Source of the DNA: Takakia lepidozioides
Taxonomy: Eukaryota; Plantae; Bryophyta
NCBI GenBank assembly: GCA_030704615.1
Contig: CM060732.1
Location: forward strand, 79,236,001-79,300,000
Direction: 5' to 3'
DNA length: 64,000 nucleotides
How positions within the stretch are numbered: position 1 is the stretch's first letter; each line of letters starts with the position of its first letter. The translations under genes were made by a program, and so were the position numbers. Shown in pieces: positions 15,068-59,223 of this stretch. Below the pieces are notes generated by a model, which was not told where the DNA came from, searched no databases, and was given only the letters and a program-made list of their open reading frames with translations.

Positions 15068-15069
15068 AA

Positions 15070-21695: not shown

Positions 21696-22994
21696 TTGAG
21701 TAAGGCTCATCCTAGTGGGAGACTTCAGTGGGAGAATTGGTGCGGCATGTCTATGAGGAGTTGGGGCATTTTGGAGTGCGACGCACTCACAGTTTACTTT
21801 AGGGGTAGTATTTGGTGGCGTGGTATGCATATAGAGGTGCAACAGTTCGTGGCTAGGTGCATGGTGTGTGACAGGGTGCGTGCTTCATTCAACGCCCCTA
21901 CACCATGGTTGCATCCTTTACCAATCATGGGATTGGGCTACAGGTGGAGTCTTGACTTCGTAGGACCATTGCCACTAACTATGCGACACCACAGATATGT
22001 GTTGGTGATGGTGGAGCACTTCTCCAAGTGGATTGAGTTGGTTAAATTGCCTGACAAGGCTAGTGAGGGGGCTGCGTATGCATTCTTGGATCGTGTGCTT
22101 AGCCGATTTGGTGCTCCAACTGAGGTACTCACGGACCAAGGGAGAGAGTTCTTTGGGGAGTTTCAGGTTTTGTGTGATAAAGCCTTGATAGACCACCGCA
22201 CCACTTCTCGGGATCATTGAGGCCGATGGCTTGGCAGAGAGAGAGTTGTTCAGACGGTGAAGAGGGGTTTGCGCAAGTATGGCTTGCAGAAAGAACACCT
22301 AGGAGATTGGGATCTTCAGGTGTCTTGGTTAGCCATGGGCTACAGGTTCTGCAAACAAGCATCACTTGCCTCTTTCTCACCATATTTCCTTCTCTTTGGC
22401 CGAGAGCCGGAATTTCCTGCAGCCATTCGTAGGGACACTGCTCGAGTCCTTAACCTTGACGATCCGGACGTGTGGGTACGTGCATGTGATCAGCGTACAG
22501 AGTTGTTCAAGAAAGTCATGCCCATGGCTTTTGAGAACCTTGCCATTGCATAGCACCGTGATACGTTGAGGTATGCCACTATACGTGGTGGAGGATATCA
22601 TCCTGGGGTTCAGAGGTTTAGCCCTGGTGACTATGTTTATTTGCAGCAAACTACTCCTACGACCCTGGATGTCACTGCAAGGCGTGTTATTCTGAGGGTT
22701 CCAGAGGTGTTGCCCTCAGGAGTCCTGATCTTGGAGGGTCGGGATGGCATGACTTAGAAAGATCATGTGCGTAATTGTGCGCCATGTCACCTTCCCAATG
22801 TCGATGGTAGAGTTGACCCAAACTTGGCAGTGGTACCTGCAGGTTTGAGGTGCATGCTCTGTGGGTCTGCCAAAGGGGCAACCACCATGCTGGTGTGTGA
22901 TCGATGCTCAAGAGGTTGGCATATGGGATGCTTGACACCACCTCTTGAGAAGGTTCCTGATGGAGATTGGTTATGTCTATACTGCTTGGGATAG
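21696..22994 (+). pseudogene. Integrase plus C-terminal PHD finger of the DNMT-Gypsy family (5'-truncated)
   Basis: WSLDFVGP, TDQGREF, DGLAER; PHD CMLC..CDRC..H..C..WLCLYC. Colinear with 57254-58441. Internal stops. Confidence 0.9.
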
Positions 22995-23253
22995 TGCAGT
23001 GGACATGACTAGAGGCAGCTAACAAGACATGGGAGGCCAAGCTCATAGGAGTCAATACATGAGATCCCAGGCTCAAGTTCACAGGTTGCAAGACGACGAC
23101 TAACGATGGGGCAACTCTTGCACCCGACCTCTTGATCTATTGAGTTTGAGTGTAGTAGGGACAGTGGTGGAGGACTTAGTGAGGCTATGGTCACTATCAC
23201 ATCTTGTGGCTACCTGGACTTAGAGGGACCTAAGCACCAGCTAGGGGGGCAAT

Positions 23254-23959
23254 TGTGTGGACTAGTGACTGCCATAGTGGGCAGCATAGTGGCAGCCTAG
23301 TGACTGACTAGTTTTTGCCTAGTGGTTGGAGTAGTGGCTGGACTAGTGGTGGACTAGTGATATACTAGTGTGTGGTGTGCATATGTGTTGTGTGGTTTTG
23401 GACAGCGATATAGTTGTGTAGCGATATGTATGCGCACAACAGCTGTCAAGTTATTTTACCACTAGTGTGAAACTAGCTAGGAAATAGCTAGCTTTTATAT
23501 ATTGACATTTGGGATTGGCCCAAGTGTCAATCCAGGGGTCAAGGCAGATTTAGGCCCTGGAGTGGTTATCTTCACGGCAAGCACGGGAGGCTCATATTTC
23601 TCGAGTTGAGCCTCACCGCGCCTAGCTATGGCGCCGTAGTGTGGATTCCCCATGGCGTCGGGTGCACTTGGCTTGACTTGTATTTGAGTGATGAGGTTAT
23701 ATATGCATGGGTTTATGCTTCAGCTTTGTGAGCTCGCATGAGCTTGTGCTTGTATTATTCTTCTTTATCATTGTGTGGACTAGTGACTGCCATAATGGGC
23801 AGCATAGCGGCAGCCTAGTGACTGACTAGTTGTAGCCTAGTGGTTAGACTAGTGGTTGGACTAGTGGTGGATTAGTGGTATACTAGTGTGTGGTGTGCAT
23901 ATGTGTTGTGTGGTTTTGGACAGCAATATAGTTGTGTAGCGATATGTATGCGCACGACA
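23254..23959 (+). repeat. Right terminus A-gc-B-t-A (subfamily 2), after the PPT CTAGGGGGGC
   Basis: A 23254-23441, B 23444-23770, A' 23772-23959. Each unit is TG...CA. Confidence 0.9.
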
Positions 23960-26566: not shown

Positions 26567-29500
26567 GCAGGTGAGAAGATGAGCCTCCTCAACACTCACA
26601 AGGGGAAAACCTATCTCCATGTCTCAAATGAGGCTCGACACCTCACTTGGCATGTGAGACCAAATGAAGTCCCAACACACAAAATATAAATATAAATATC
26701 TAAAATGTCCTAGTTAACTAGAAGTAGGTAATTATAGATAACCATGACTAAAACCATGACAGCTGTCGTGCACCTAAGCATCGTGCCACAACATACATCG
26801 CTGTCCACCACACAATCTAAGCACACAATCCTAGAAAGCTATACCACAATCGCCCCCCTAGCTGGTGGTTAGGTCCCTCTACCTCCAGATAGCTACAAGA
26901 TGTAATAGCCACAGCCGTACTAAGTCCTCTATCACCGTCCCTATTGTACTCAAACTCTATAGACCAAGAGGCCGGGTACAAGAGCAACCCCATCGTTAGT
27001 TGCCGTCTTGCAATCTGTGAACTTGAGTCAGGATCTCGTGTGTTGGTCTCCTAGTAGCTTGGCCTTGCATTTCTTGTTAGCCTTCCATGGTTGTATCCAT
27101 TCCCACTATCCAATGCAATGCAGACATAACCAATCCCCATCAGGAACCATCTCAAGAGGTGGAGTCAAGCATCCCATATGCCAACCTCTAGAGCATTGAT
27201 CACACACTAGCATGGTGGCTGCCCCTCTAGCAGACCCACACAACATGCACTCAAACTTGCAGGTACCACTGTCAGGTTTGGGTCAACCCTTCCATCAACA
27301 TTTGGAATATGACATGGCGCGCAATTACGCACATGGTCCTTCCAAATCATGCCATCCCGACCCTCCAAGATCAGGACTCCTGAGGGCAATTCCTCTCGAA
27401 CCCTCAAAATAGTACGTCCTGCAGTCACATCCAAGGTCGTAGGAGCAGTCTGCTGCAGATAAACATAGTCACCAGGGTTGAATCTCCGAACCCCAGGACG
27501 ATAGCCCCCACCACGTATGATAGCATACCTCAACGTATCACGATGTTGTGCAATGGCAAGGTTCTCGAAAGCCATGGGCATGACTTTCTTGAACAACTCT
27601 GCACGCTGCTCACACGCACGTGCCCACACGTCCGGATCGTCAAGATTAAGAATTGTAGCAGCTTCTCTGCGAATGGATGTCGGCAAATCCGGCTCTCGGC
27701 CAAAGAGAAGAAAGTATGGTGAGAAGGAGGCAAGTGATGCTTGTTTGCTGAACCTATAGCCCATGGCTAACCAGGGTAACTGAAGGTCCCAATCTCCTAG
27801 GTGTCCCTTCTGCAAGCCATACTTGCGCAAACCCCTCTTTACTGTCTGAACAACTCTCTCTGCAAGCCATCGGCCTCAGGATGATCCGAGAAAGTGGTGC
27901 GGTGGTCTATCAAGGCCTTGTCACACAAAGCCTGAAACTCCCCCAAGAACTCTCTCCCTTGGTCCGTGAGTACCTCAGCTGGAGCACCGAATCGGCTAAG
28001 CACACAATCCAAGAATGCATACGCAGCTCCCTCACTAGCTTTATCAGGCAATGGAACCAATTCAATCCACTTGGAGAAGTGCTCCACCATCACCAACACG
28101 TACTTGTTGTGGCGCATGGTTAGTGGCAACGGCCCTGCGAAGTCAAGACTCCACCTGTAGCCCAATCCCATGATCGGAAGAGGGTGCAATTGTGGAGTAG
28201 GGGCGTTGAATGAAGCACGCACCCTGTCACACAAATGCACCAACCACAAATTGTTGCACCTCTGTGTGCATACCACGCCACCAATACTGCCCTTGCAGTA
28301 GACTATGAGTGGGTCGCACACCAAAATGCCCCAACTCCTCATGGGCATGCCGCACTAACCGTGCCCGCTGTGTTGGGTGAGGCACAATCCTCACTCGACC
28401 ATCCCCACACTCGGAGCAGGTGTCCCCTCCCACTTGAACCTCTTAGCTCATTGTAGGATCCGATCCCTCTCCTTGGCAGTCACAGTGGCTGCAGTGTCTC
28501 CAGTGCGGAGGTAGTCCAACACAACTGAATCCTCATGTATATCTTTGGCGCCACCTTGCTCATTGCTGGCCTCAGGGTCCTCAGACACTTGATCTACAGT
28601 CATCCCTGTTGCAGGTCCAACCTGGCCTTCCGCTGCCAAGATACACAGAAATGCAGATGCATGCCATCCGGGCGGCACCATCTCTCGTCCGTCTCACCAT
28701 GCCACCGAGCTCCAGTGTCATCCTGCTGGCTCGTGCATGGATTGCGACTCAACCCATCTGCATTGCGATTGACCAAACCCGGTCGATGCACCACTTGAAA
28801 GTCATACTCTTGAAGGATGAGTGCCCACCGTGCAAGCTTCCCCGTAAGCTTGTCTGACTCCATCAACCACTTGAGTGGTTGGTGATCCGTGACAAGGGTG
28901 AAGAGATTGCCGTATAGATAGCACCTGAAGTGTGCCACGGCCCACACTGCAGCTAAGCATTCTCCATCATATGAGCTATACTTAGACTCTGCAACGTTGT
29001 TCGAGCGGCTAGCATAAGCCACTACGAACTCTCTTCCCTCATCATCTACCTGTGTGAGCATCGCTCCAATCTGTATGCAGCTGAAAAGGACGCCCCCTGA
29101 TAGGTCGTCTCAAGATGGGCGCCGAGGTCAACCTCGCCTTGAGCTCTTGACAAGCTTGTTCTTTCTCATCTCCCCACTGCCACTCCTGGTCTACCTTGGT
29201 CAGCTTGGTTAGAGCCTTTGCAATGGCACTAAATCCCTTAACAAACCGTCTATAATAGTTTGCTAACCCCATGAAAGCTCGAACTCGGCTCACATCCGTG
29301 GGGCGTGGAACCTGTGCAATGGACTCTACCTTAGTCTGCTGTACCCCCAATCCTCTAGGATATATCATGTGACACAGATACTCAATCTGGTTGTGGAAAA
29401 ACTTGCACTTTCCCGGATGTAACTTCAATCCGTGCGTCCTCAAGCGCTCAAATACCCCCTGAAGATGTCTCTCATGCTCTTCCACCATAGCACTAAAGAT

Positions 29501-31749
29501 GATGATGTCATCTATGTAGCACCGAGCAAACTCCACCCCTGCTACAATCTTGTTCATGACTCTTTCAAACTCTACCGGAGCGTTCTTAAGCCCAAATGGT
29601 AAGAACCGCCACTGGTATAGGCAATCCTTCCCGTGCTCATTGATCCCCCAGAATGCCGTCTTTTGCTTATCCGCCTCCTTGATCGGCAACTGGTGATATC
29701 CGGATCGTAAATCCAACGTGCTAAAGACCATTGGCATGCCCAATGGCATCAAAGATCTCCTCTGGTGTCGGCATGGCATACCTATCGGACTTGGTCTGAC
29801 GATTTACAGGCCGGTAATCACCGCACAACGTCTCTACGTCCAATTGTCCAAAGACATCCTTCTTGGCTGGCATCACTGTGGCTGAAGCATACTCTCCCCT
29901 AGATAGCTCCACCAAACCAGCCTCCCAAAGGTCCTGAGTTCTCATCTGAATCAAGGACCTCTCCATGTCACTGTATCTATAGGGTCTCCGAAAGATTGGC
30001 GTGTCAGTAGCCAATTCAATGCGAATCTCTTGACCCTTCAGTGCTCCTAAGTCCTTCAAACTGAAGGCAAAGCAGTTCCTGTAAGCCCTCAAGAACCGCC
30101 GTATACGTCGTCTCTCTCCTCCGGTGACTATAGGTCCAACATCAGGCTCCCAATTGTCCTCCGTGACTGCAATCTTGAGTCCAGCAGGCTTAGAGGTAGA
30201 AGACGCGTCCCGTGGTTGCTATGCTGCAACCTCTTGAGCAGTGACCACTGCCTCCTCTGTCAGTGACAATGTCTCATCCTGCCCCATCATCCCATCCTTG
30301 AGGACCTCCTCAATCCGAGAAAAATCCCCAACCTGATCCATCACCCCAGCCTTGGCTGCCAACTCCTTCTAAACCTCCCACGTGTGCCATGGATGCAGCC
30401 TGCACCTCGTGGTCCTCACCTGCTCGCCCCCACTCACTGCCTGTACCGTCTCGGTAGGCAGGGAGACCATGAAGGGAAGTGTACTCCATACTCTATGTTG
30501 CTCAGCCATAGCCAAGCTGATAATCCAGGTCAAGCAATTGAGATCCATTGCTTGCCCCAACACCTGACGACGTGATGCCTGAGAAAGAGATGGCACCGCC
30601 GTGGCACTTGTGGTAAAACCCATCGCCCGCTCACGCTTGTCAGCATTGGGCTCCACTAATTGTTGCAACTGGTACAAGAGGCCAGGTCCACCATCCCGAA
30701 ATGGGATCCTGGGAAGTTGAGCAGTGTAGGTAATGCTGCTCGTGGTTGACCCACCCTGTTGACCACTGCCAAAGGCGAACGGTCATCGTGTCTCACACGT
30801 TGAGACTGCCTCCCTGTGTCCAAAATGCTATCCACTGTGAGGTGTGCTGGCCGCTGCACCCCATCAAATGCACGCTTGAGCAGTGCGGGTGACATCAAGT
30901 TAGTCCACCATAGCCGTGGACGATGAGCCCATGACCCCAATGCAGCTGCATCCAGCAACACTGCTGACCCAAGCCACGACCGGACTTGATGCACACTGGC
31001 CATCACCCTGGCCCGAGAATCACCCATCAGTGGCACATTCTCCAAGATGTATGCTGGAGATACAGCTTGATGAAGCTGCAAATGGCGCAAAATTCGCACC
31101 ATCTCCCAAAACAGACCCGTCCTCGAGTCTTGCAATCCATTGTCATGCCCAGCTGATGAATGCCCTTGGCAGGGCCAACCTGCCACTACCAGATCAATGG
31201 AGCCAACCCTCTCCAAATCCTGCGCCCCCAGCAATGAAATGTCTGCTGGCAAGGCTTGTTGGTATCCACGAACTGCAGACACTGGCAACAAATCAGGGTA
31301 CTGCTGTACCAACTGAACAACATGGCGCAGTGAGACGCGTCGTGCAGTCTCATCCATCTCCACATATAGGTAACATCGAACTCGTACACCTGCCTGCAGT
31401 ATTGCAGCCAATCCAATGCTGATCCCGCCAAACAAGTCGAGAAGGCATATGCCTTCATCCGGGCACTGCCACACAAGAGGTGTGGTGTCCAATGGCGACA
31501 ACTGAGGTGGTCCTGGTGCAATCACCGCACTCTCCTCTTCTCCTGACGGTACGAAGGCCTTTACCCAGACTTGTTGTACCCGTCCATCAGTAGCCTGCTG
31601 CAAATCCTTGCTCGTACCCCATAATGGAGTGTGAGCAACCATGGCAGGCAACTCTGCCGTACCATGCATGTCATCCTGCTCTGCTGGAGGTGGCACATCC
31701 TCTGCATGGGCATTGCCTTTGAGCAACTCTCTAGGCCAACTAACTGCAG
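26567..31749 (-). mobile_element. DNMT-Gypsy 3' portion: DNMT-RT-RH-INT-PHD-PPT-A3-gc-B3(truncated)
   Basis: DNMT ORF 30656-31759. [24 protein letters not shown] (29042-29779). RH 28600-29061. INT 27207-28348. PHD about 27110-27250. PPT 26853-26860. A3 26764-26848. Confidence 0.92.
30540..31453 (-). pseudogene. DNMT3-like C5 cytosine methyltransferase domain within pol (copy 1)
   Basis: Motif I LDLFGGI, II YVEMD, IV AGWPCQ, VI ILENV, VIII AHRPRLWWTNL in one ORF. Motif IX RERAMGF and X RRQVLGQAMD follow after a frameshift near 30700. Confidence 0.92.
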
Positions 31750-32273
31750 AGATGGCCATTGGACTACAACCAGATCATCCTGTAGATGGCTCAGTGATGC
31801 GAGCCACGGCCATTGTGACAGACGCGGTCTCTAACGATGTCCTTGTTGGTGGGGCAGTGTCATATCCCATGGGCTTCACCCTGGACTTTTGGAAGGAGTC
31901 AACATCCTACAGGCCTGGATGGCAGTCAGGGGATGATCGTCGTGCACAGCTCTCTGTGACATTCATTGGGGGTATTGCGGCTGCCCAGCGGGGCAAGATG
32001 CCAACACTAGCTGCCTTTACTAAATCATGAGGAAGATGCTTGCCACAAACCAAGCTCTCTTTCTCACTTAGACTCCAAAAACCCCGCCACTCAACTCAAT
32101 GGCAAACAACCAAGCCTTGCTGGTTTCCAGCCCTTGTGAGCACTTATTCATGCGCTCTCCTTGGCCATAGCACGTGTCTTAGAGCCTATTCCAGCCCCCT
32201 ACACCTGCCGCTTCAAGAGCCATGCTCTATCTAGGCTTGTAGTTGAAACTCCAACTCAAAACACGCTCTACAA

Positions 32274-44150: not shown

Positions 44151-47100
44151 TATCCACAGTGTGAAAACAACTAGAATAAAGCTAGTTATTTGTATTTAAC
44201 ACTTGGATTTAGGTCAAGTGTTAAATCATGTGTCAAGTTTAGTTTGACATCTCAACCGCCTTATCTTCACGAGAGCGGCAGTCGCGCAGCTCATCTCTCT
44301 CGAGTTGAGCCTGCGCGACCGAGCTCCTTCACGCTTTAGAAGCTGAGTATGCTTATGAAGGGAGGATATGTTGTTGTGGGTGGAGTCCCCATAGCTTGGG
44401 GTGCCCCTGGCTCGACTACTATTTTAAAGAGTGATGGTGTTGGTTTTCATGTTTCTTGTGTGAACAGTGTGTCTTTTAGTTTTCTATCACTCGAGATAGA
44501 TGACCTCTTACCTGTGAGTGCAAGGTAGGAGCTGAGGGTTAGCACTTGTATGATTCCCTGTGTGTAAGTAGTGCTTAGTTTGAGAAGCTTTAAAAAAACA
44601 AAAAACAAAAAAAACATGCAGGTTTCGATCTACGTCTCCATTACTCGAGGCACGACGCGACCAGTAGCTGCATCAGTACCAATATCTCCCACTGCCAGCA
44701 CTAGTAGTGGAACAAGTAGTGCCGGTACTTCTGCAGGTGGTACCAGTTCAAAAGGTGCTACTACTCCTCCTGCCACGACTACAACACATGTGCCTAGATT
44801 CAACCCGGTGGTGGAGTTCTTCCAGGAGTTGCGGAGGAACTACCAAGGTGTACGGACAGAGAAGCTGCGAAGTTTGCAAGACTTCCAGCGCAAACCCAGT
44901 GAGAGCTTGCGAGAGGCCTACACTCGTATGAGGCGCTTGATAAGTGTGACCCAAGGGGTTACTGAAGCTCAGGCAATCCAGTTCTGGTATGGAATTTTGG
45001 ACAAGGAGCTCAGGAGAATGGTGCGGGATGCAACCCTGTTACAAGCAGCCCAACCCACATTAGCAGATGTATTTCTGCTGGCTGAGCGGATTGAGCTCAA
45101 CATGGTGGAGGAGCGAGTTGTTACCATTGGGTTTGGCAAGGACATGCCTGCACGAGGCGTAGCTGCCAGCCCACAGGCACAAGGGACTGCCCAACAGCGT
45201 GGTCAGGGGGGCAAGGTTTCCCAACCCAAGTTCCATGGAGCTTACAGGGGACCTCAGGTGCAGAGGCCCGTGACATCTTTTGCAGGCCAACAGCAACCAG
45301 GGGTGATATGTTGGACATGTGGAGGACCCCATGTCAAGAGAGATTGCCCAGAGCGTGGCAAAAGGCCGGCACAAACACAGCCTGCACAGTTGCAGTGTGG
45401 GCATTGTGGCAAGTATGGGCATGGAGATGCCCAGTGTTATGACTTACATCCTGAGTTGCGCCCAGGCCAGTTCCAAGGGAACAATGGTGGTCGGGGTCGA
45501 GGTGGATCAGCCCAGAGAGGACGAGGTGGTTGGGCAGGAGGTGCAGGCCAAGGGCAAGCTCAACATGGCCAAGGACGCGGAGGTCAGGGTGTTGACCAAG
45601 GCATGGCCAACCGGCTTCAGCAGCTAGAGTAGAGGCTCGTTGCCATGGCTACAGCTCAGGCGGTACCCGCTCCCAGGCGGGATGGTCCACCTCCTGTTCC
45701 TGAGGGAGGAGATATGGGAGGCATGGGATTCATGTGCGGAGCAGCACTACCACTAGAGCAGGTGGAGTTTGCTGCAGTCGTGACTCGAGGAGCAACACGA
45801 GTTCCTGAGCCACGAGGTGCAGAGGTGGAGTTCGATCCACAATGTGGGGAGGCAAGCCGTCAGGCGAGGCTGCCTCAGTCATTCACCTTGGCGGAGACAG
45901 TGTCAACGCCATCCATGGCACCTAATTCTCGCCCGACTGTTACCGAGGCGGAGGTTTCTATGCCATTGGGGAGAGCTACACGTGCAGCATTGACACCTAC
46001 TGCCAATGCTAGTGCAGCCGGTGTGTTGTTGGGGGCAGCCACCTCTGTGTGTCAAGCCCCACTGTTCTCGGCAACCATGATTGCGACGCCGGGGGTAAGA
46101 CCAGCTGCAGTGTTCAGACTAGCAGCAATACTCTGTGAGAGTGGGGAGGTCACTTCATCTTCTGCGGAGTTACTGGAAGGTGTAGTGGCAGATGGATCCT
46201 CGGATTTGAGGGTCAAGACTGCCACGGCTGCGCCATAGCAAGCTGCAGCTGCCAGGTTGATGGAGCTGCCAGCTAGGCCAGCCTTTGAACGCGCCATGGT
46301 GACACTTGGAGTTGTTTTGTTAGACAACCAGGATGGCATTTTCTCTTTGAGTGGACCGGCAGGCAAGAAGTACCGGCCACTTTGGGTTTTGTTGGACTCG
46401 GGAGCTCAGCCACTGATGTTGGGCAGAGCTGCTATTGCAGTTTTGGGCCTCATGGAGGTGGATATGGAGCCTTGTCCTTTCCAGATACAGACATCTCTGG
46501 GATGATCAGAGCAGGCTCGGGGCATGACACGACATCAGTTGGCCATTAGACTGCAGCCGGATCATCCTATCGATGGCTCAGTAATGCGAGCCAAGGCCAT
46601 TGTGACAAACGCGGTCTCTTACGATGTCCTCGTTGGTGGGGCAGTGTTATACCCCATGGGCTTCACCCTGGACTTTTGGGAGGAGTCAGCATTCTACAGG
46701 CCTGGATGGCAGTCAGGGGATGGTTGTCGTGCACAGCTCCCTGTGACATTCATTGGGGGTATTGCGGCTGCCCACGGGGCAAGATGCAAACACTAGCCGC
46801 CTTTACAGCTGCAGTTAGTTGGCCTGGAGAGTTGCTCAAAGGCAATGCCCATGCAGAGGATGTGCCACCTCCAGCAGAGCAGGATGACATGCATGGTGTG
46901 GCGGAGTTGCCTGCCATGGTTGCTCACACTCCATTGTGGGGTACGAGCAAGGATTTGCAGTAGGTTGCTGATCGACGGGTGCAACAAGCCTGGGTAGAGG
47001 CTTTTGTACCATCAGGAGAGGAGGAGAGTGCGGGTATTGCACCAGGACCACCTCAGTTGTCACCATTAGATACCACACCTATTGTGTGGCAGTATCCGGA

Positions 47101-47524
47101 TGAAGGCATTTGCTTTCTGGACTTGTTTGGCGGGATCAGCACCGGATTGGCTGCTGTGCTACAGGCAGGTGTGCGGGTAAGGCGTTACCTGTATGTGGAG
47201 AGGGATGAGACTGCACGATGCGTCTCACTGCGCCATGTTGTTCAGTTGGTACAGCAGTACCCTGCTTTGTTGCCAGTGTCTGCAGTTCGTGGATACCAAC
47301 AAGCTTTGCCAGCAGACATTTCGTTGCTGGGGGCGCCGGATTTGAAGCAGGTTGGCTCCATTGATCTGGTAGTGGCAGGTTGGCCCTGCCGAGGGCATTC
47401 ATCAGCCGGGCATGGCAATGGATTGCGAGACTCGAGGACGGGTCTGTTTTGGGAGATGGTGCGGATTTTGCGCCACTTGCAGCTTCATCAAGCTGTATCG
47501 CCAGCATACATCTTGGAGAATGTG

Positions 47525-48248
47525 TGTCGCGGCCCTTTGCCTTGAGGGCAGGGGGTCGGGACACATGAGGGGCTGCCCCTGTGGTGGGGGCAGCGGCAGC
47601 GATAGGTATGGGGGGCTGAAGCACCCTTGAGTGCCCAAGGCACTCAAGGAGGCGGAGGCGCTCACTAGGTGGAGCCCCGCACACCGGGTTGCGGTGGAGG
47701 TGGCTCCACAAGGGGTGGTGGTAGCTTAGTGGGACTTAGTGGGGGTGGCATAGGACTCACCATGGGGTGGAGACCTCGAGGTGGGAGTCGTGGGGAGTCT
47801 TGGGACTCATCACGGTCCATTGGGGCCGCGGTGAGTGGGCCAAGACTCACCGCGACTCACCACCGGGAGTCGAGGGTTTTCGTGGTGGTTCGCCATAAAA
47901 TGGCATGGCTGGTTATGAAACCCCCGCGGACAGCTACAGAAGTATATATAGGGAGTAGTAACCCCGAGAACGGTGCAAGCCCGTTGGTGACCAAAAACTA
48001 GTGAGTAAGCGAGCGAGCCGGAAAGCGACCAAAGAGTGGGGAGCTGTTCCGGACTGCCATCTACCAAAGGGAATTCTCCTAGTCCCAAATAGGTGGAGGG
48101 TTTAGAGGGAAGCGGAAGGGGACCGTTATGTCCCGGTGAGCAGCCGAAACTCCAAGTTGGCCCGGCGGCCAGGTTGGGAGTCAGGCGCGCGCATCAAAGC
48201 GAGTAACTATGACTTGAAGGGGAGTTTACCGAATTGAGGTGTGCGACA
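47525..48248 (+). repeat. Chromovirus 5' LTR (724 bp)
   Basis: TGTCGC...GCGACA; matches 53773-54495. Confidence 0.95.
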
Positions 48249-48250
48249 TT

Positions 48251-48262
48251 TGGTATCAGAGC
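48251..48262 (+). promoter_or_regulatory. PBS for initiator tRNA-Met
   Basis: TGGTATCAGAGC, 2 nt after the LTR. Confidence 0.95.
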
Positions 48263-48303
48263 TTAGAGTTCAGTACGCGATCGTCCTTGGGATTGGCCTC
48301 ATC

Positions 48304-49467
48304 ATGGGGTCGGGCAAGCCGAAGCGAAAGCGGAACGGCCCAAAAGATGATGATCCCGGTGAGCCCGATGGGGGCGACGTGTCACCGAGGCGGCCGTTTG
48401 AGGAAGCGATTAATGTTTCCGAAAACGAGGCCGCTCAGGAGCGGGAGGAATCCGAGGAGTCGGAGCCCGAGGAATCTTTGAGAGCTCCGACAAACCAAGA
48501 GATGCCTCCCATGCCGGCAGCCTTTTGGGAAGGGTTGTTGGCGCAGTTTGGCGGGACGTTGAAAGACGTGTTGAAGGCGGCTAATGCCACTTCCACCAAG
48601 GCAAAGTTTAAGGTGAAGCCTAAGGAACCCGGCACCTTCGAGGGCATTCGAAACCGGAAGGCACTCAACACCTGGCTCCTGGAGCTAGAGCAGTACTTCC
48701 GGGCGGCCAAGTTGAGTGACGAGGATCGGGTGGAAGTGGCTCCCACCTATTTGAGGGGCTATGCTCAACAATGGTGGCAGAAACGCCTTCACGACCGAGG
48801 CCCAAGCCCGGAAACCTTGAACTGGAGTGAGTTCAAGGAATTGATGAAGAGACAGTTTGTGCCCCTCAACGCATCCTGGCTTGCCCGGGACAAGATGAGG
48901 AATTTGAAGCAAACAGATGACATTCGGGGGTATGTCCAGGCTTTCAATGTGCTGTTGCTCGAAGTCGCGGACATGGCAGAACCAGAAATGGTCTTCAACT
49001 TTGTGGCGGGACTGGCCCCATGGGCTAGGCGGAAGTTGGAGGAGAAGCCACCCAAGACTTTGAACGAGGCAATTGAGAGAGCTGAATGTTTCTCGGATGT
49101 CCCTAGGGGTGAGAGACAAGGCCGTACGGAGCTGAACCACAAGAAGACCCGGCGGGAAGGTGACTCCTCCCGACCGGAAAAGAAGTGGGATAGGCCACGC
49201 GGCGAAAATGGCACGTGGAAATCGAAGGGAGGTCCTTCACACGTCAAGGCGGCACCCGGTGCTTCGAAAGGAAAAGCGGGTGGAGCGACTTATGGCGGAC
49301 AGAAGGCGACCTTTGATGGAGTGTGTTTCAATTGCGGGGAGCCCGGGCACATGGCCAAGAAGTGCACGAAGCCCCGGCAATTGAACATGACTCGGGCGAC
49401 CACGAACTGTCGGAAGATACCATCAGTCGCTTGGTGGAAGCGGTGGTCGCCAGGACTTGCAAGGTAG
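48304..49467 (+). CDS. gag: Chromovirus Gag
   Basis: Retrotransposon gag core (YLRGYAQQWW, W.EFK..M..QF) and CFNCGEPGHMAKKC knuckle. First ATG at 48304. Confidence 0.9.
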   Translation: MGSGKPKRKRNGPKDDDPGEPDGGDVSPRRPFEEAINVSENEAAQEREESEESEPEESLRAPTNQEMPPMPAAFWEGLLAQFGGTLKDVLKAANATSTKAKFKVKPKEPGTFEGIRNRKALNTWLLELEQYFRAAKLSDEDRVEVAPTYLRGYAQQWWQKRLHDRGPSPETLNWSEFKELMKRQFVPLNASWLARDKMRNLKQTDDIRGYVQAFNVLLLEVADMAEPEMVFNFVAGLAPWARRKLEEKPPKTLNEAIERAECFSDVPRGERQGRTELNHKKTRREGDSSRPEKKWDRPRGENGTWKSKGGPSHVKAAPGASKGKAGGATYGGQKATFDGVCFNCGEPGHMAKKCTKPRQLNMTRATTNCRKIPSVAWWKRWSPGLAR

Positions 49468-49623
49468 GCAAATTTTCTTGTGAGTTGTATCAGGAAACTG
49501 GCGCCTTACGAAAAGGGAGTCAGTTATTGTTCGTGGATGGGATAATATCCGGAACTAATGTGTCGTTGTTGGTGGACACAGGAGCGTCGCACTCCTTCAT
49601 GACGCCCGGCGGCGGCGCGAAAG

Positions 49624-52600
49624 TTGGGACTCCCGACAAGTGACGTGGGGGCCTCTATTGAGGTGCGCTCTGCCAAAGGAGAACCTCAGTTGGCGACAAG
49701 GTTGGCGTTTGATGTTCCTCTTCAACTGGGGAGTTGGGAGGGACGTGAGAACTTCACTATCTGCGAGATCGATGGAGTGGATCTCATTTTGGGAATGACC
49801 TTTTTGAGCAAATCCGGAGCGGTCATAGATGGCCGCAAGAGAGTAGTCACGCTGCCATGTGGGAATGGTGGCGAGGTTTTACGAGTGTCGGAAACGCCCA
49901 AATCCGTGGGAGGGCGAATAAACCTTCTATCAGCAAAGGAGTGGGCCGTGGAGGAGACACACGAGTCCCAGTTTTTGCTTTACATTAGAGAAGTGAAAGG
50001 AGAAGGCGATGGGGAGCCGAGCCCAGATTGGATCAAGGGGATTTTGGAGAAATACCAGGATGTGATGCCGGAGGATTTACCAAGCGGCTTGCCACCGCGA
50101 AGAGGAGTTGACCACAAAATTGAGGTGATACCGGGATCGGAACCGCCTGCCAAGGCGCCCTACCGGTTGAGCCACAAAGAGTTGGTCGAGCTGAAGACTC
50201 AGCTCAAAGATCTAATGTCAAAGGGGTACATCCGGCCGAGTAAGTCACCTTACGGAGCCCCGGTGCTATTTGCAGACAAGAAGGATGGGACGCTGCGGAT
50301 GTGTGTCGATTACAGGGCTCTGAATAAGGTGACTATCAAAAACCGGTACCCTTTGCCAAGGATCGACGACCTCTTCGATCGGTTGGCAGGAGCGAAGTAT
50401 TTCAGCCGGATCGACTTGCGCTCCGGCTATCACCAAATTCGGGTGGCGGAAGGAGATGAGGAGAAGACCGCGTGCAGGACAAGGTATGGTTCATATGAGT
50501 TCTTGGTGATGCCTTTTGGGCTCACCAATGCACCAGCGACATTTAGCACGCTGATGAACAGCCTTTTCCAGGAGTGGTTGGATGACTTTGTGATCGTGTA
50601 CATCGACGACATCTTGGTGTACTCGAAAACAAAGGAGGAGCACCTGGAGCACCTCAAAAGGGTGTTCCAAAAATTGCGAGAAGGGAAGCTGTATGCCAAA
50701 GCTTCAAAGTGCGAATTCGGGGTCACAAAAGTGGAGTTCTTGGGGCACGTGATTACACAGGATGGGATCAAAATGGATGACAGAAAGGTGAGGGCGATCT
50801 TGGACTGGGAGCCTCCGACTTCGGTCCCGGGAGTGCGATCCTTCCTAGGACTCGCCTCCTATTACCGGAAGTATGTGAGAAATTTCGCCAAGATCGCGGG
50901 GCCGCTGTCGGACCTTCTGTGTAAATCCAAAGTCTGGGTATGGAACACATTTTGTGGCCAAGCTTTTGCTGAATTGAAGCAGCGGATGACGGAAGCTCCA
51001 GTCTTAAAAATCCCGGAGTTCGATCGTCCGTTTGAGATTCATACAGATGCATCGGACTTCGCAATTGGGGGTGTACTTATGCAAGATGGACGTCCAGTGG
51101 CTTACGAAAGTAAGAAACTGAATGAAGTGGAGCGACGGTGGCCGACGCACGAAAAAGAGATGAAGGCGGTGGTACATTGCCTTGAACTCTGGCGCCACTA
51201 TGTTGGTTCCAACCCAGTGAAGGTGTTCACGGACAATGTCACGGTGAAGTATTTTGCCACGCAGCCCAAGTTGTCCCCAAAACAACTTAGGTGGCAAGAT
51301 ACTTTGGCAGTGTTCGACGTGGATATCCAGTACAAACCGGGACGGGACAATGTGGTGGCCGATGCTTTAAGTAGAAAGCAGCAGCTCTTGTTGGTGTACA
51401 AGGGCGAGACGGCGCTCCAAAGGAAGATCCGGAAGGCTTGCCGGAAGGATGAGCTGGCAAAGTGCGTGATGCAGAACTTGAGAATGGGGGTTAAATCGCA
51501 GTTCCACTTGCAAAACGGACTGCTCCGGTATAAGCAAAAACGTCTCTATGTGCCAAAGGGAGGGATCAGGGATAGTCTCTTGAGAGAATGCCATGATAGC
51601 CCGCTTGCGGGCCACGGTGGAGCCAAGCGCACTGCGGCACTCTTGAAGAAAGAGTATTTCTGGCCCAAACTGAGGGAGGAGGCAGAGGAGTATGTTAAGA
51701 CATGCACCACATGCCAACAAAACCGGAGCGAGTATAAAAAGCAAGCGGGGCTGTTACAACCCTTGCCGATTCCAGAGGGGACTTGGGAAAGCGTCTCGAT
51801 GGATTTCATGACTGCTATGCCGCTGTCAAAAGGATTCGATGCAATCATGGTGGTGGTAGATAGGTTCAGTAAAATGGCCCATTTCATCCCCACCAAGGAG
51901 ACGGCAACTGCGCAGGAGACAGGGCGACTTTACTTCGCCCACGTCTTAAAGCATCATGGAGTCCCGAAGGATATTGTCTCGGACCGCGATCCAAAGTTTA
52001 CGAGTAAATTCTGGAGAGCACTTTGGAAGAAGATGGGGACGAGGCTGAAGATGAGCACCGCCTTCCGACCTACGACGGACGGCCAAACGGAAAGAGTGAA
52101 TTCCGTAGTGAAGCAATTCTTGCGGAATTACGTGTCGGCAGACCAATCAGACTGGATGGAACACTTAGACGCGGCAGAGTTCTGTTATAATAACACAGAA
52201 CACTCCGCGACGGGAGTTTCCCCTTTTGTGTTGGTCTATGGAAAAGCACCTCTGGTGCCGACAAGTTGGGCCGCCCAGGACGTTGAGGAACCGGCAGTAG
52301 CGGCGGTACTGGAAGAACGCGAGCGTTTGTTGAAGCTCGCAAAGTACAACATTGCCAAAGCTAGGAAACGGTATGAAAGGCAGGCGAATCGGAAGCGGAG
52401 GGAAGTGAAGTTTGAGGCAGGCACAGAGGTCTGGTTGAACATCAAGAATTTTCGACTACCTCCGGAAATGAGTCCGAAGTTCGTACCTCCGTATGCGGGT
52501 CCCTTTCGCATTCGGAGGGTTATGAATGAGGATGTGTATGAATTGGAGCTGCCAGCAAACAGCAAGGTGCACCCAGTATTCCATGTCTCCCTTTTGAAGC

Positions 52601-52866
52601 CTTACTTCAAAGATGAAGCACGTCCGAATCGGCAGCAAGTGTTGCGTCCGCCACCTATGCTGTTGGATCATGAAAATGAACCCGAGTACGAGGTGGAGGC
52701 AATACTTAAGTCGAGGAGGTTCAAGAACCGAGAAACGGAGTATCTCGTCAAATGGAAGGGCTATCATCTTGTGGAGGCATCTTGGGTGCGTGCCTCAGAA
52801 ATGGGAAACGCATCCGAGGCAGTTGCAGCGTTCGAAGGGCGACCTCAAAAGCGGAAGAAGCGTTGA
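49624..52866 (+). CDS. pol: Chromovirus Pol (PR C-part, RT, RH, INT, chromodomain); the protease active site LVDTGAS lies in an upstream frame at about 49570
   Basis: YIDD, HTDASD, SMDF/SDRD/DGQTE, GPF motif, YEVEAIL...EYLVKWKGY...SWV. Two frame changes between gag, protease and pol. Confidence 0.95.
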
Positions 52867-53772
52867 TGGGGACATCAACCTTGGAGCGTGGGGGAGGAAA
52901 TGCATGCTTAGCCCGGTTTAGCTAGCTCAGGAATCCGATTGCAAAAACTTGTATTGTACAAAAATTTGTGATAAAGGAAATGGGTTCCAAATATTGTGCG
53001 TCCTATTGTGTTTGGAATGGTGATGCATGGTGTGGTTGGCTGGTGTGTAGAATGCATGCTAGCTTACAAAAGTGGGAGAGGTAAATTGGGTTAATCGTGT
53101 GTTTGCGCAGTGCCGAAATCGGGTGACTCCCATCCAAGGGGCAAGGAAACTTGCGCCTTATTTGGGAGTTCAAGTGCTAGTGCGCACCTGGCGCGTGCGC
53201 GTACTATAACTGCGCTACCGAGGGGGTTGCCTTGTAGTGCGGGCTAACGCGGAAGCTACGTGCTTCCGTTCACGTACTATAATCGTGTAGCCTCGGGACG
53301 AAGTCGTAGTGCGGCTTCGGCGTGTTCCCGTACCTCAGGCCAGCATTCCAAGGCGGACCCAATTGTAGTGATTGGGGCGCACGGTTGGTTCAAGGTTATC
53401 TTCCTAGTCAAAGAGGGTTCCAGGTGAACCCTTGCTCAAGGTGATGCCAAAAGCGGCATCATGAGCGATCGCAAGCAATGTTGTTGCAGTAAGGCGATTC
53501 GATCCTCGGGGAGGATCGTTCCTTGGCCTTGAAGTAGGCCAAGAAGAGTGCACTGGGAGGAGCTGGAGAGGCTCCACCCTTGGCCGGGACTTGGAGGAAG
53601 TCGGCCGAACTAGCTAGTGGAGAGTGGAGTCAAGTGTGGGGTTTGGTTCTTTGCCATGGGACGCCATGGTACGGAAACAAACTCCTTGATGTGGGACGCC
53701 ACAACTTGGATGTTCGTTTCTACAAAATGGACAAGTCGATGAGGACATCGACTCCCTGTTGGTAGGGGTGTG

Positions 53773-54495
53773 TGTCGCGGCCCTTTGCCTTGAGGGCAGG
53801 GGGTCGGGACACATGAGGGGCTGCCCCTGTGGTGGGGGCAGCGGCAGCGATAGGTATGGGGGGCTGAAGCACCCTTGAGTGCCCAAGGCACTCAAGGAGG
53901 CGGAGGCGCTCACTAGGTGGAGCCCCGCACACCGGGTTGCGGTGGAGGTGGCTCCACAAGGGGTGGTGGTAGCTTAGTGGGACTTAGTGGGGGTGGCATA
54001 GGACTCACCATGGGGTGGAGACCTCGAGGTGGGAGTCGTGGGGAGTCTTGGGACTCATCACGGTCCATTGGGGCCGCGGTGAGTGGGCCAAGACTCACCG
54101 CGACTCACCACCGGGAGTCGAGGGTTTTCGTGGTGGTTCGCCATAAAATGGCATGGCTGGTTATGAAACCCCGCGGACAGCTACAGAAGTATATATAGGG
54201 AGTAGTAACCCCGAGAACGGTGCAAGCCCGTTGGTGACCAAAAACTAGTGAGTAAGCGAGCGAGCCGGAAAGCGACCAAAGAGTGGGGAGCTGTTCCGGA
54301 CTGCCATCTACCAAAGGGAATTCTCCTAGTCCCAAATAGGTGGAGGGTTTAGAGGGAAGCGGAAGGGGACCGTTATGTCCCGGTGAGCAGCCGAAACTCC
54401 AAGTTGGCCCGGCGGCCAGGTTGGGAGTCAGGCGCGCGCATCAAAGCGAGTAACTATGACTTGAAGGGGAGTTTACCGAATTGAGGTGTGCGACA
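53773..54495 (+). repeat. Chromovirus 3' LTR (723 bp)
   Basis: The only difference from the 5' LTR that I noticed is one C in a C-run. Preceded by purine-rich GGTAGGGG. Confidence 0.95.
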
Positions 54496-57253
54496 ATGTG
54501 CCACTGATGGGTGATTCTCTGGGCAGGGTGAATTGCCAGTGTGCATCAAGTCCGGTCGTGGCTTGGGGTCAGCAGTGCTGCTGGATGGCAGCTGCAGTGG
54601 ATCACAGGCTCATCGTCCACGGCTATTGGTGGACTAACTTGATGCCACCCCACTGCTCAAGCGTGCATTTGATGGGGTGCAGCGGCCAACACCTTACAAT
54701 GGAAACATTTTGGACACAGGAGGCAGTCTCAACGTGTGAGACACGATGACCGTTCGCCTTTGGCATGGTCAACAGGGTGGTGTGTCAACCACGAGCAGCA
54801 TTACCTACACTGCTCAGCTTCCCAGGATCCCATGCTTTTCGGGATGGTGGACCTGGCTGCAACAGATAGTGGAGCCTAATGCCGACGAGCGAGAGCGGGC
54901 TATGGGGTTTTCCACTGGGACCACGGCGGTGTCTTCTCTTTCTGAGGCATCACGACGTCAGGTGTTGGGGCAAGCAATGGATCTCAATTGCTTGACCTGG
55001 ATTATCAGCTTGGCTATGGTTGAGCAACGTAGAGTACGGAGTGCACTTCCCTTGACGGTCTCTCTGCCTACCGAGACGGTACAGGCAGCGAGTGGGGCGA
55101 GCCGGTGGAGGACCACGGGGTGTAGATATCCATGGCACACGTGGGAGGTGCTCGAGGTCCAGGGGAGTTGGCAGCCAAGGCAGCTGTGATGGATGAGGTT
55201 AGGGATTCTTCTCGGGTTGAGGAGGTTCTCAATGATGAGATTGGGGCAGGATGAGGCCTTGTCATTGACTGAGGAGGAAGGGAGTACTGCTCAAGAGAGT
55301 TGCCAGCATAGCAACACGGGACGCGTCCTCTACCTCTAAGCCCACTGGACTTAAGGTTGCAGTTATGGAGGACAATTGGGAGCCTAACATTGGACCCATT
55401 GTCACCGGAGGAGAGAGACGACGTATGCGGCGGTTCCTGAGGGCTTACAAGAATTGCTTTGCCTTCAGTTTGAAGGACTTGGGAGCACTGAAGGGTCAAG
55501 AGATTTGCATTGAATTGGCTACTGACACGCCAATCTTTCGGAGACCCTATAGATACAGTGACATGGAGAGGTCCTTGATTCAGATGAGAACTCAGGAATC
55601 TTGGGAGGCAGTTTGGTGGAGCTCTCTGGTGGAGAGTATGCTTCAGCCACAGTGATGCCAGCCAAGAAGGATGTCTATGGCAATTGGAGGAGAGACGTAT
55701 GTGCGGTGATTACCGGCCTGTAAATCGTCAGACCAAGTCCGATAGGTATGCCATGCCGACACCAGAGGAGATCTTTGATGCCATTGGGCATTCCAAGGTC
55801 TTTAGCACATTGGATTTACGATCCGGATATCACCAGTTGCCGATCAGGAGGCGGATAAGCACAAGACGGCATTCTGGGGGATCAATGAGCACGGGAAGGG
55901 ATTGCCTATACCAGTGGCGGTTCTTACCATTTGGGCTTAAAAACGCTCCTGCTGAGTTTCAAAGGGTCATGGACAGGATTTTAGCAGGGGTGGAGTTTGC
56001 TCAGTGCTACATAGATGACATCATCATCAATCTTAGTGCTACGGTGGAGAGCATGAGAGACACTTCAGGGGGTATTTGAGCGCTTGAGGACGCACGGATT
56101 GAAGTTACATCCGGGAAAGTGCAAGTTTTTCCACAACCAGATTGAGTATCTGGGTCACATGATATATCCTGGAGGATTGGGGGTACAGCAGACTAAGGTA
56201 ATCCATTGCACAGGTTCCACGCCCCACGGATGTGAGCCGAGTTCGAGCTTTCATGGGGTTAGCAAACTATTATAGACGGTTTGTTAAGGGATTTAGTGCC
56301 ATTGCAAAGCTCTAACCAAGCTGACCAATGTGGACCAGGAGTGGCAGTGGGAAGATGAGCAAGAACAAGCTTTTCCAGAGCTCAAGGCGAGGTTGACCTC
56401 GGCGCCCATCTTGAGACGACCTATTAGGGGCGTCCTTTAAAGCTGTATACAGATTGGAGCATGCTGGGGCTTGGAGCGGTGCTCACACAGGTGGATGATG
56501 AGGGAGAGAGTTCGTAGTGGCTTACACTAGCCGCTCGAACAATGGCTGGCTGAGTCTAAGTATGCTCATATGAGGAGAATGCTTAGCTGTAGGGTGGGCC
56601 GTGGCACACTTCAGGTGCTATCTATACGGCAATCTCTCACCCTTGTCACGGATCACCAACCACTCAAGTGGTTGATGGAGTCAGACAAGCTTACGGCGAA
56701 GCTGCATGGTGGGCACTCATCCTTCAAGAGTATGACTTTCAGGTGGTGCATCGACCGGGTTTGGGTCAATCGCAATGCAGATGGGTTGAGTCGCAATCCA
56801 TGCACGAGCCAGCAGGATGACACTGGAGCTCGTGGCATGGTGAGACGGACGAGAGATGGTGCCCGGATGGCATGCATCTGCATTTCTGTGTACTTGGCAG
56901 CGGAAGGCCAGGTTGGACCTGCAACAGGGATTACTGTAGATCAAGTGTCTGAGGACCCTAGCGCAATGAGCCAGGTGGTGCCAAAGATATACATGAGGAT
57001 TCAGTTGTTGGACCCCCTACTACCTCCGCACTGGAGACCTGCAATCACTGTGACTGCCAAGGAGAGGGATCTGATCTACAACGAGCAAGTAGGTTCAAGT
57101 GGGAGGGGACACACCTGCTCCCGAGTGTGGGAGATTGGTCGAGTGAGGATTGTGCCTCACCCAACACAGCGGGCAACGGTTAGTGCGGCATTCCCATGAG
57201 GAGTTGGGGCCTTTGGGTGCGACGCACTCATAGTCTACTGCAAAGGGCCAGTA

Positions 57254-58441
57254 TTGGTTGGCGTGGTATGCACACAGAGGTGCAAACAATTTGTGGCTAG
57301 GTGGCATGGTCATGTGATAGGGTGCGTGCTTCATTCAACGCCCCTACTCCACAATTGCACCCTCTTCCGATCATGGGAATTGGGCTACATGTGGAGTCTT
57401 GACTTCGCAGGGCCGTTGCCACTAACCATGCGCCACAACAAGTACGTGTTGGTGATGGTGGAGCACTTCTCCAAGTGGATTGAATTGGTTCCATTGCCTG
57501 ATAAAGCTAGTGAGGGAGCTGCGTATGCATTCTTGGATTGTGTGCTTAGCCGATTCGGTGCTCCAGCTGAGGTACTCACGGACCAAGGGAGAGAGTTCTT
57601 GGGGGAGTTTCAGGCTTTGTGTGACAAGGCCTTGATAGACCACCGCACCACTTCTCGGGATCATCCTGAGGCCGATGGCTTGGCAGAGAGAGTTGTTCAG
57701 ACAGTAAAGAGGGGTTTGCGCAAGTATGGCTTGCAGAAGGGACACCTAGGAGATTGGGACCTTCAGTTACCCTGGTTAGCCATGGGCTATAGGTTCAGCA
57801 AACAAGCATCACTTGCCTCCTTCTCACCATACTTTCTTCTCTTTGGCCGAGAGCCGGATTTGCCGACATCCATTCGCAGAGAAGCTGCTACAATTCTTAA
57901 TCTTGACGATCCGGACGTGTGGGCACGTGCGTGTGAGCAGCGTGCAGAGTTGTTCAAGAAAGTCATGCCCATGGCTTTCGAGAACCTTGCCATTGCACAA
58001 CATCGTGATACGTTGAGGTATGCTAGCATACGTGGTGGGGGCTATCGTCCTGGGGTTCGGAGATTCAACCCTGGTGACTATGTTTATCTGCAGCAGACTG
58101 CTCCTACGACCTTGGATGTGACTGCAGGACGTACTATTTTGAGGGTTCGAGAGGAATTGCCCTCAAGAGTCCTGATCTTGGAGGGTCGGGATGGCATGAT
58201 TTGGAAGGACCATGTGCGTAATTGCGCGCCATGTCATATTCCAAATGTTGATGGAAGGGTTGACCCAAACCTGACAGTGGTACCTGCAAGTTTGAGGTGC
58301 ATGTTGTGTGGGTCTGCTAGAGGGGCAGCCATCATGCTAGTGTGTGATCAATGCTCTAGAGGTTGGCATATGGGATGCTTGACTCCACCTCTTGAGATGG
58401 TTCCTGATGGGGATTGGTTATGTCTGCATTGCATTGGATAG
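57254..58441 (+). CDS. DDE integrase with C-terminal PHD finger (PHD about 58297-58438)
   Basis: WSLDFAGP, TDQGREF, DGLAE; CMLCGSARGAAIMLVCDQCSRGWHMGCLTPPLEMVPDGDWLCLHC (C4HC3). Confidence 0.92.
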   Translation: MVGVVCTQRCKQFVARWHGHVIGCVLHSTPLLHNCTLFRSWELGYMWSLDFAGPLPLTMRHNKYVLVMVEHFSKWIELVPLPDKASEGAAYAFLDCVLSRFGAPAEVLTDQGREFLGEFQALCDKALIDHRTTSRDHPEADGLAERVVQTVKRGLRKYGLQKGHLGDWDLQLPWLAMGYRFSKQASLASFSPYFLLFGREPDLPTSIRREAATILNLDDPDVWARACEQRAELFKKVMPMAFENLAIAQHRDTLRYASIRGGGYRPGVRRFNPGDYVYLQQTAPTTLDVTAGRTILRVREELPSRVLILEGRDGMIWKDHVRNCAPCHIPNVDGRVDPNLTVVPASLRCMLCGSARGAAIMLVCDQCSRGWHMGCLTPPLEMVPDGDWLCLHCIG

Positions 58442-58700
58442 TGGGAATGGATACAACCATGGAAGGCTAACAAGAAACGCAAGGCCCAGCTACTAGGAGA
58501 CCTTGAACACACGAGGTCCTGGCTCAAGTTCACAGATTGCAAGACGGCGACTAACGATGGGCTACTCTTGTACCCGGCCTCTTGGTCTATAGGGTTTGAG
58601 TGCAATAGGGACAGTGATAGAGGACTTAGTACGGTTGTGGCTATTACATCTTGTAGCTATCTGGAGGTAGAGGGACCTACCCACCAGCTAGGGGGGCGAT

Positions 58701-59223
58701 TGTGGCAAACTACTTTATTGTGCATATATGTGTGGTGTGGTTTGGACAGCGATGTAGTTATGTAGCGATACGTATGCGCACGACAGCTGTCAAGTTAAAT
58801 AAGCACAGTGTGAAAACAACTAGAATAAAGCTAGTTATTTATATTTAACACTTGGATTTAGGTCAAGTGTTAAATCAGGTGTCAAGTTTAGTTTGACACC
58901 TGAACCGCCTTATCTTCACGAGAGCGGCAGTCGCGCAGCTCATCTCTCTCGAGTTGAGCCTGCGCGACCGAGCTCCTTCACGCTTAGAAGCTGAGTATGC
59001 TTATGAAGGGATGATAGGTTGTTGTGGGGTGGAGTCCCCATAGCTTGGGGTGCCCCTGGCTCGACTACTATTTTAAAGAGTGATGGTGTTGGTTTTCATG
59101 TTTCTTGTGTGAACAGTGTGTCTTTTAGTTTTTATCATTGTGGCAGACTACTTTATTGTGCATATATGTGTGGTGTGGTTTGGACAGCGATGTAGTTATG
59201 TAGCGATACGTATGCGCACAACA
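58701..59223 (+). repeat. Right terminus A-gc-B-t-A (subfamily 1), after the PPT CTAGGGGGGC
   Basis: A 58701-58785, B 58788-59137, A' 59139-59223. Confidence 0.92.

Follow-up and report, generated by a model that had tools for sequence, protein, structure and literature searches.

The closest published element to the one described here is KnitGypsy-Dnmt3 of Klebsormidium nitens (de Mendoza et al. 2018, PMC5890265). According to that paper, it combines Ty3/Gypsy domains with a non-permuted DNMT3-like cytosine methyltransferase domain under purifying selection, carried in one open reading frame (ORF) with reverse transcriptase (RT) and ribonuclease H (RH), and its Gypsy domains lie between DIRS-like repeats (A, body, B-A-B). 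A DNMT3-like domain also occurs in a second split-repeat retrotransposon, the dinoflagellate SymbioDIRS-Dnmt3, which has the DIRS order and whose acquisition of the domain is called independent (PMC5890265). Another article repeats the streptophyte and dinoflagellate cases (PMC12344493). Here we analyzed 64,000 nucleotides of the bryophyte Takakia lepidozioides (GenBank assembly GCA_030704615.1, contig CM060732.1, positions 79,236,001 to 79,300,000), referred to as the window. A previous inspection of its letters (the sequence-only reading) had proposed a Gypsy family with its own DNMT, and had rightly named the Klebsormidium precedent. Judged by its sequence, the element is a land-plant-type relative of KnitGypsy-Dnmt3, dead in the window and with a conserved candidate readthrough stop. 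It differs from SymbioDIRS-Dnmt3 by a DDE integrase (rve) and 4-bp target-site duplications (TSDs), and from KnitGypsy-Dnmt3 in that its first ORF (ORF1) is closed behind the DNMT by a stop in candidate readthrough context. PMC5890265 is the sole description of such Gypsy elements that we found, and none turned up for land-plant members or for the stop, in a search mostly at abstract level with few subscription journals. Its main text makes no mention of PHD or of Marchantia, and the available text of PMC6317226 (REXdb) gives no PHD or DNMT for the bryophyte clades Phygy and Selgy.

Six-frame translation, self-comparison and Pfam searches revealed decayed Ty3/Gypsy copies in the window, with a DNMT3-like cytosine methyltransferase between protease (PR) and RT, and a PHD finger after integrase (INT). 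The coordinates are given in Table 1. PF00145 matched copy 1 at 46964-47542 (plus strand, E 3e-11) and copy 2 at 30659-31774 (minus strand, E 2e-14). In both copies motifs I, IV, VI, VIII, IX and X are in normal order upstream of RT, as the sequence-only reading had claimed, and RT (RVT_1), RH, INT (rve) and PHD were all located downstream of the DNMT by Pfam on the window ORFs. Its account of the gag and protease frame in copy 1 was also correct: Gag, with two CCHC knuckles, and protease (LLDSGAQ at 46389) share a frame broken by three stops (45630, 46236 and 46503), followed by one frame change near 46775 and then DNMT motifs I-VI. The homologous stretch near 31984 differs there by one base; it is part of a 270-bp segment whose orientation is opposite to that of the remaining copy 2. 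Neither copy is intact. Frameshifts are numerous in copy 1 from 54501 to 57500, and its Gag is missing the N-terminal ~130 residues; tblastn with the Marchantia proteins P0051 and P0302 begins at residue 132, and PF03732 matches weakly. In copy 2, the frame is broken near 30700 and there is an additional stop near 30370. In each of the four runs compared, contigs carry extra letters at 30700, so this break is not common to all copies.

The family is not restricted to these copies. Its ends and coding matches add up to ~18.5 kb, or 29% of the window, and include three different versions of terminal repeat A, in agreement with the several subfamilies suggested earlier. Among the 3,038,600 contigs of run X1, 50,738 map to 5 kb of copy 2; this figure is not a copy number, but the matches indicate an abundant and diverse family. 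Comparisons were made with 56 related metagenome loci (DNA, L-numbers) and with homologous proteins (P-numbers).

The DNMT domain is DNMT3-like, as had been proposed, and its predicted fold is that of DNMT3A/B. For the intact relative L040 (3763-4764), DNMT3A/B was the best match among solved structures by sequence (E 5e-8). The structural model of this domain (pLDDT 91.8) also gave DNMT3A/B as best Foldseek match, with E 8e-20, template-modelling scores of 0.71/0.83 and 21% identity. Compared with host enzymes, the family's DNMT is 21-23% identical to human DNMT3A/B, and its normal motif order is unlike the permuted order of DRM. A DNMT profile search with E up to 1e-30 gave 407 representative proteins. 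Among its top 150 matches, 144 span motifs IV to VI, and in 121 of the 144 the catalytic Cys motif and EN[VTILA] are both present.

The selection check suggested with that proposal was carried out as ratios of nonsynonymous to synonymous substitution (dN/dS). Between diverged copies, the DNMT gave 0.14 (0.07-0.23) for L039/L040, 0.15-0.17 for L001 against L003 and L006 (L001/L003 0.15) at dS of about 1.8, and 0.24 (0.10-0.51) over 152 codons for copies 1 and 2 of the window. Pairs of window copies with L001, L003 and L040 were excluded for saturated dS. The linker after motif X gave 0.61, 0.97 and 0.16, with wide intervals. These values of 0.14-0.24 show that the DNMT has been under purifying selection.

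In intact relatives, ORF1 is a Gag-PR-DNMT fusion, closed by a conserved in-frame stop upstream of RT. In L040, a 1369-residue ORF containing PR and DNMT is followed by TAG CAG TTA and a 1047-residue ORF containing RT, RH, INT and PHD; the two ORFs share a frame and abut without spacer, and the stop is the sole break. Five Marchantia models (P0051, P0302, P0303, P0309 and P0310; 1278-1281 residues) are Gag-PR-DNMT proteins ending ~98 residues after motif X, and the 1319-residue P0296 ends at the matching place. The position of the DNMT, fused to Gag-PR and lying between PR and RT, stands as first described. A continuous open frame into pol was not supported: copy 2 has RT in the frame of its DNMT, with TAG followed by CAA-CCA (30221) between them. 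At 55309, copy 1 shows the equivalent TAG-CAA; one base is missing downstream of it. Throughout the lineage the stop lies ~100-130 codons past motif X.

The junction was compared in 40 loci and the two window copies, each with at least 420 nt after motif X. These 42 rows are partly redundant (re-assemblies and close copies) and correspond to 35 clusters at 98% and about five independent lineages. The junction column is TAG or TAA in 38 of them. As for the other four, L009 carries TAG-CAA on the far side of an insertion, and in L010, L046 and L047 similarity is lost directly downstream of motif X. Within the largest family, the stop is present in all 24 non-redundant copies, as TAG in 18 and TAA in 6, and the next stop-richest codon reaches 5/24. 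The stop is common to lineages whose DNMTs are ~50% identical.

The bases 3' of the stop are also conserved. They read CAACCA in copy 2 and L001, CAACTA in L051/52, CAGTTA in L039/40 and CAATCA in L054; the largest family has CAACCC (CAR-YYC). CAR YYA is the type I readthrough signal of tobacco mosaic virus (TMV), and it works in plants (PMC2754532). Thus copy 2, L001, L051/52, L039/40 and L054 have a TMV-type signal, a stop plus CAR-YYA in frame with the downstream ORF. As a background, CARYYA follows 8 of the 5481 stop triplets in the window. The second codon after the stop encodes P, L, L or S depending on the lineage (CCA, CTA, TTA, TCA) while YYA is kept, which points to selection on nucleotides. 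An in-frame stop between two ORFs is known from TMV, whose type of 3' context is found here, and from gag-pol of murine leukemia virus (MuLV), pol-env of SIRE1, and Tca2 (PMC2754532, PMC2194720). In the retroelements described there the stop follows Gag or Pol, whereas here it follows Gag-PR-DNMT, which would place the enzyme on the abundant side.

The closest relatives of the window copies are, by sequence, bryophyte elements. Homologue searches yielded proteins from Marchantia, Calypogeia, Sphagnum and Riccia, and no related loci were found in viral contigs. The window DNMT is 67-70% identical to that of Marchantia and Calypogeia, versus 44% to that of Klebsormidium. A quick IQ-TREE analysis of RT-RH (115 rows selected by similarity to L040, with long branches) grouped the window copy with Marchantia, Calypogeia, Riccia and L001/L006 (Shimodaira-Hasegawa-like approximate likelihood ratio test, SH-aLRT, 96). 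This bryophyte group is nested in a large, mostly PHD-bearing RT clade that includes Klebsormidium KFL_009030040 and Closterium (SH-aLRT 97-98). A DNMT tree of 47 rows, built without a host DNMT3 outgroup, contains a 15-row clade (100/99) made of the window copy, the stop-bearing loci and proteins ending after the DNMT. Open DNMT-RT proteins fall outside this clade, as do P0331 and P0341, which end after PR-DNMT and lie among Closterium-type sequences. An uninterrupted DNMT-RT protein was found only in more distant relatives, such as Klebsormidium KFL_009030040, with PR-DNMT-RT-RH-INT in one annotated protein, Closterium, P0097 (2138 residues) and P0290 (2811 residues).

A second arrangement has the DNMT inside Pol, between RH and INT; it was seen in P0073, P0075, P0090 and 78 of the top 150 profile matches, a large group that includes the chlorophyte Hariotina. 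These chlorophyte-type relatives (Hariotina reticulata P0075/P0090 and others) share a C-terminal PHD and the same kind of DNMT (~42% identical), but form a separate DNMT clade that splits off (99/96), with Klebsormidium on the window copy's side. Judging from the two domain orders, the DNMT either moved within Pol or was captured twice. Two further family members may be mentioned. P0236 (cluster of P0116) is labelled uncultured cyanobacterium at NCBI and is probably plant DNA in a metagenome bin. P0118, an ORF from the Coleochaete scutata transcriptome, has the RT-RH-INT-PHD of the clade, starts just before RT and contains no DNMT.

We propose that the conserved stop is leaky, that Gag-PR-DNMT is made at Gag level, packaged, and methylates the new cDNA, and that RT-RH-INT-PHD is reached by readthrough; we give this whole reading a probability of about 0.62. 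The full-length RNA would probably be translated into abundant Gag-PR-DNMT and, by occasional TMV-type readthrough, into a longer product with RT-RH-INT-PHD. As a part of ORF1, the DNMT would, with somewhat less assurance, co-assemble into the particle and be released by the protease. More tentatively, it could methylate the cDNA inside the particle or at integration; methylation of cDNA was among the roles proposed for such domains in PMC5890265.

Several points weigh against this proposal. CAA-CCC-ATG is the sequence in the largest family, which accounts for 29 of the 38 rows with a stop; it departs from CARYYA at +6 and places an ATG right after the stop. The junction rows are redundant as described, only two of them are host copies, and Marchantia and Calypogeia are known at the junction from proteins only. 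Four gene models of Marchantia leave out the junction and thereby connect DNMT with RT. A yeast reporter showed no readthrough of the gag-pol stop of Candida Tca2 (PMC2194720), and the KnitGypsy-Dnmt3 domain of Klebsormidium did not methylate in yeast, a result that its authors call inconclusive (PMC5890265). Ogre elements provide a precedent for splicing instead (PMC6317226). The DNMT dN/dS rises to 0.38 in the close decayed pair L002/L008 and to 0.95 in the near-identical dead copies L003/L006. Finally, the observed/expected (o/e) CpG ratio of the DNMT element is 0.45-0.51, compared with 0.49 for the copia element of the window and 0.25 for another Ty3 element; depletion is no stronger in the DNMT element. 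A self-methylation signature based on CpG/CHG composition was dropped, as composition is not specific to the DNMT family.

The alternative that survives best, although we consider it clearly less probable, is that a non-catalytic or RNA-directed function explains why the DNMT is retained (it might bind nucleic acid, contribute to particle structure, or act as a decoy for partners of host DNMT3), or that it silences new copies of its own element to the host's benefit. The inactivity of the Klebsormidium domain in yeast fits this view, RNA methylation and slowed transposition are both discussed in PMC5890265, and amounts at Gag level would exceed the need of a single cDNA. However, the catalytic Cys and ENV motifs are kept in the 121 relatives counted above, and the dinoflagellate SymbioDIRS-Dnmt3 domains perform de novo CG methylation in yeast (PMC5890265).

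It is a little less probable still that Pol is produced without readthrough, from an intron ending at or spanning the TAG as in Ogre, by reinitiation at a nearby ATG, or from a separate pol transcript. The T-rich-GCA-TAG of the largest family resembles a splice acceptor, an ATG lies two codons after its stop, and the Marchantia gene models skip the junction. Against this view, conservation lies 3' of the stop (CAR-YYA) and not 5' of it, where contexts vary and contain competing AGs; copy 2, L001, L051 and L054 have no ATG right after the stop; and the ORFs abut in frame with no spacer. The weakest alternative, the single open Gag-PR-DNMT-RT-RH-INT-PHD polyprotein of the sequence-only reading with its stops due to decay, can draw on the open DNMT-RT proteins P0097, P0290 and P0162 (Klebsormidium) and on the abundance of C-to-T stops in decayed copies, but sequence comparison has largely refuted it for the stop-bearing clade, where the stop occupies one column in 24/24 copies against at most 5/24 elsewhere, is the sole break in L040 and is common to ~50%-identical lineages, and we regard it as very improbable.

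The ends of the element are split direct repeats, A-body-B-A-B, and not ordinary long terminal repeats (LTRs). Copy 1 consists of A1, body, a G run resembling a polypurine tract (PPT), B1, A2 and B2, and the B-A-B 3' end is also found in copy 3, L008, L013, L034 and L045. The B1/A2 joint is a conserved palindrome, GACA-GC-TGTC (variants -AT- and -GT-); B2 begins at the PPT boundary, and A2 and A1 finish at the same CA. The termini are TG...CA, with 4-bp TSDs where both ends are present (AAGG in L034, TCTC in L013, ATAA for the window copy with ends at 1619 and 20569). The 44155 copy is 5'-truncated, so its TSD is unreadable. An ordinary tRNA primer site was not recognized: A1 is followed by CTC(G/A)A.., not by TGGT.. 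as after the LTR of the nested chromovirus described below, a comparison made without searching a tRNA set. Troyka was rejected as an identity for these ends, since the available description (PMC12440569) gives CG..CG termini, a 3-bp TSD and animals only.

Such ends could tentatively be explained by ordinary reverse transcription with B+A as working LTR, after which the ends of the cDNA would be joined to form a circle and integrase would cut this circle at its internal palindromic B/A joint, giving A-body-B-A-B; DIRS- or Ngaro-like templating is the alternative origin. About 20 extra bases at the A2/B2 joint of L013 (10817-10860) fit imprecise end-joining; the joints of L008, L034, L045 and the window are tight. 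Four loci (L014, L018, L019 and L021) end at PPT-B with no A-B after it, an A-body-B form which could have arisen when B1 and B2 recombined or when a one-LTR circle integrated. Together with a DDE integrase, split-repeat ends suggest an integration route unlike that of standard LTR elements.

The PHD finger is closest to those of CHD4, DPF3, PHF12, KDM5 PHD1, ATXR5, BAZ2A and PHF21A. PHD fingers of these types bind unmethylated H3K4. By analogy, the PHD on the integrase might steer insertion to silent chromatin through unmethylated H3K4, although we would not yet favor this step.

Table 1. Features of the DNMT-bearing copies in the window and of the element nested in copy 1 (PPT, polypurine tract; CHD, chromodomain).
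Feature	Position	Strand	Remarks
Terminal repeat A1, copy 1	44155..44489	+	First 16 nt missing relative to A2; ends CA; 327/333 identical to A2
Gag, copy 1	44790..45900	+	CCHC knuckles 45309, 45396; stop 45630; N-terminal ~130 residues deleted
Aspartic protease, copy 1	46240..46775	+	Gag frame; DSG 46389; stops 46236, 46503; frame change ~46775
DNMT3-like domain, motifs I-VI, copy 1 first half	47102..47524	+	PF00145 E 3e-11
Young chromovirus nested in copy 1 DNMT, separate from DNMT family	47525..54495	+	Gag, RT, RH, INT, chromodomain; TSD ATGTG (5 bp)
DNMT3-like domain, motifs VIII-X, copy 1 second half	54501..55015	+	Frameshifted
Conserved ORF1 stop TAG-CAA, copy 1	55309..55317	+	One base missing in context
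RT-RH-INT-PHD (ORF2), copy 1	55371..58441	+	RVT_1, rve, PHD; RT/RH frameshifted; INT-PHD open 57200-58441
3' end, copy 1	58688..59223	+	G run 58688, B1 58699-58785, GC, A2 58788-59136, B2 59137-59223 ending CA
PPT, B1, palindromic joint, start of A, copy 2	26574..26861	-	Third A type
RT-RH-INT-PHD, copy 2	27100..30212	-	Several frame breaks
Conserved ORF1 stop TAG CAA CCA, copy 2	30213..30221	-	Candidate readthrough context, RT frame
DNMT3-like domain, motifs I-X, copy 2	30504..31456	-	PF00145 E 2e-14; one frame break ~30700
Protease-end fragment of copy 2, inverted in place	31750..32020	+	91.5% to 46537-46806
Gag to protease start, copy 3	17319..19514	+	Gag N-terminus present
INT-PHD and PPT-B1-A2-B2 end, copy 3	21737..23959	+	Second A type
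Outer ends, further copy	1619..20569	+	A1 1619-2040; partial A2 + B2 20270-20569; 4-bp TSD ATAA; interior mostly other insertions

Further fragments of the DNMT family (ends, Gag start) lie at 33402-36071, 34917-35457, 59604-59926, 866-1183 and 43001-43241. The INT-PHD regions of copies 1 and 2 (57501-58500 and 27045-28050) are near-identical, with 0 and 5 mismatches per 500 bp, unlike their DNMT and RT, which show 14-52 mismatches and many indels. This may reflect gene conversion, recombination or an assembly effect. The chromovirus that interrupts copy 1 is inserted just after DNMT motif VI (ENV), and its LTRs are identical over 723/723 aligned bases. It has long, uninterrupted Gag-PR and RT-RH-INT-CHD ORFs and a Met-type primer site, and its CpG o/e is 0.88, versus ~0.5 in its neighbours. 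Other elements of the window carry no DNMT: a decayed minus-strand Ty3 element (3382-15999) and a copia element (60200-63860).

Taken to its furthest extent, which we consider unlikely as a whole, our proposal would be that a streptophyte Ty3 clade, active in land plants including Marchantia, relocated its DNMT3 so that it lies on the abundantly translated side of a leaky stop, and that its particles carry methyltransferase at capsid stoichiometry and pre-methylated cDNA that is circularised and integrated through an internal attachment (att) site under PHD guidance. If this is true, such an element would set its epigenetic state itself, and might also set that of the sites where it inserts. 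From the conserved stop one expects an odd stoichiometry, with methyltransferase at Gag level and scarce RT and integrase, which constrains the role of the enzyme. As far as the literature was searched, published DNMT-carrying retrotransposons come from algae only; the intact ORF1 models of Marchantia make land-plant members testable in a genetic model. The conserved stop is also a warning that many genes annotated as 'DNA methyltransferase' in bryophyte genomes are retrotransposon ORF1s.

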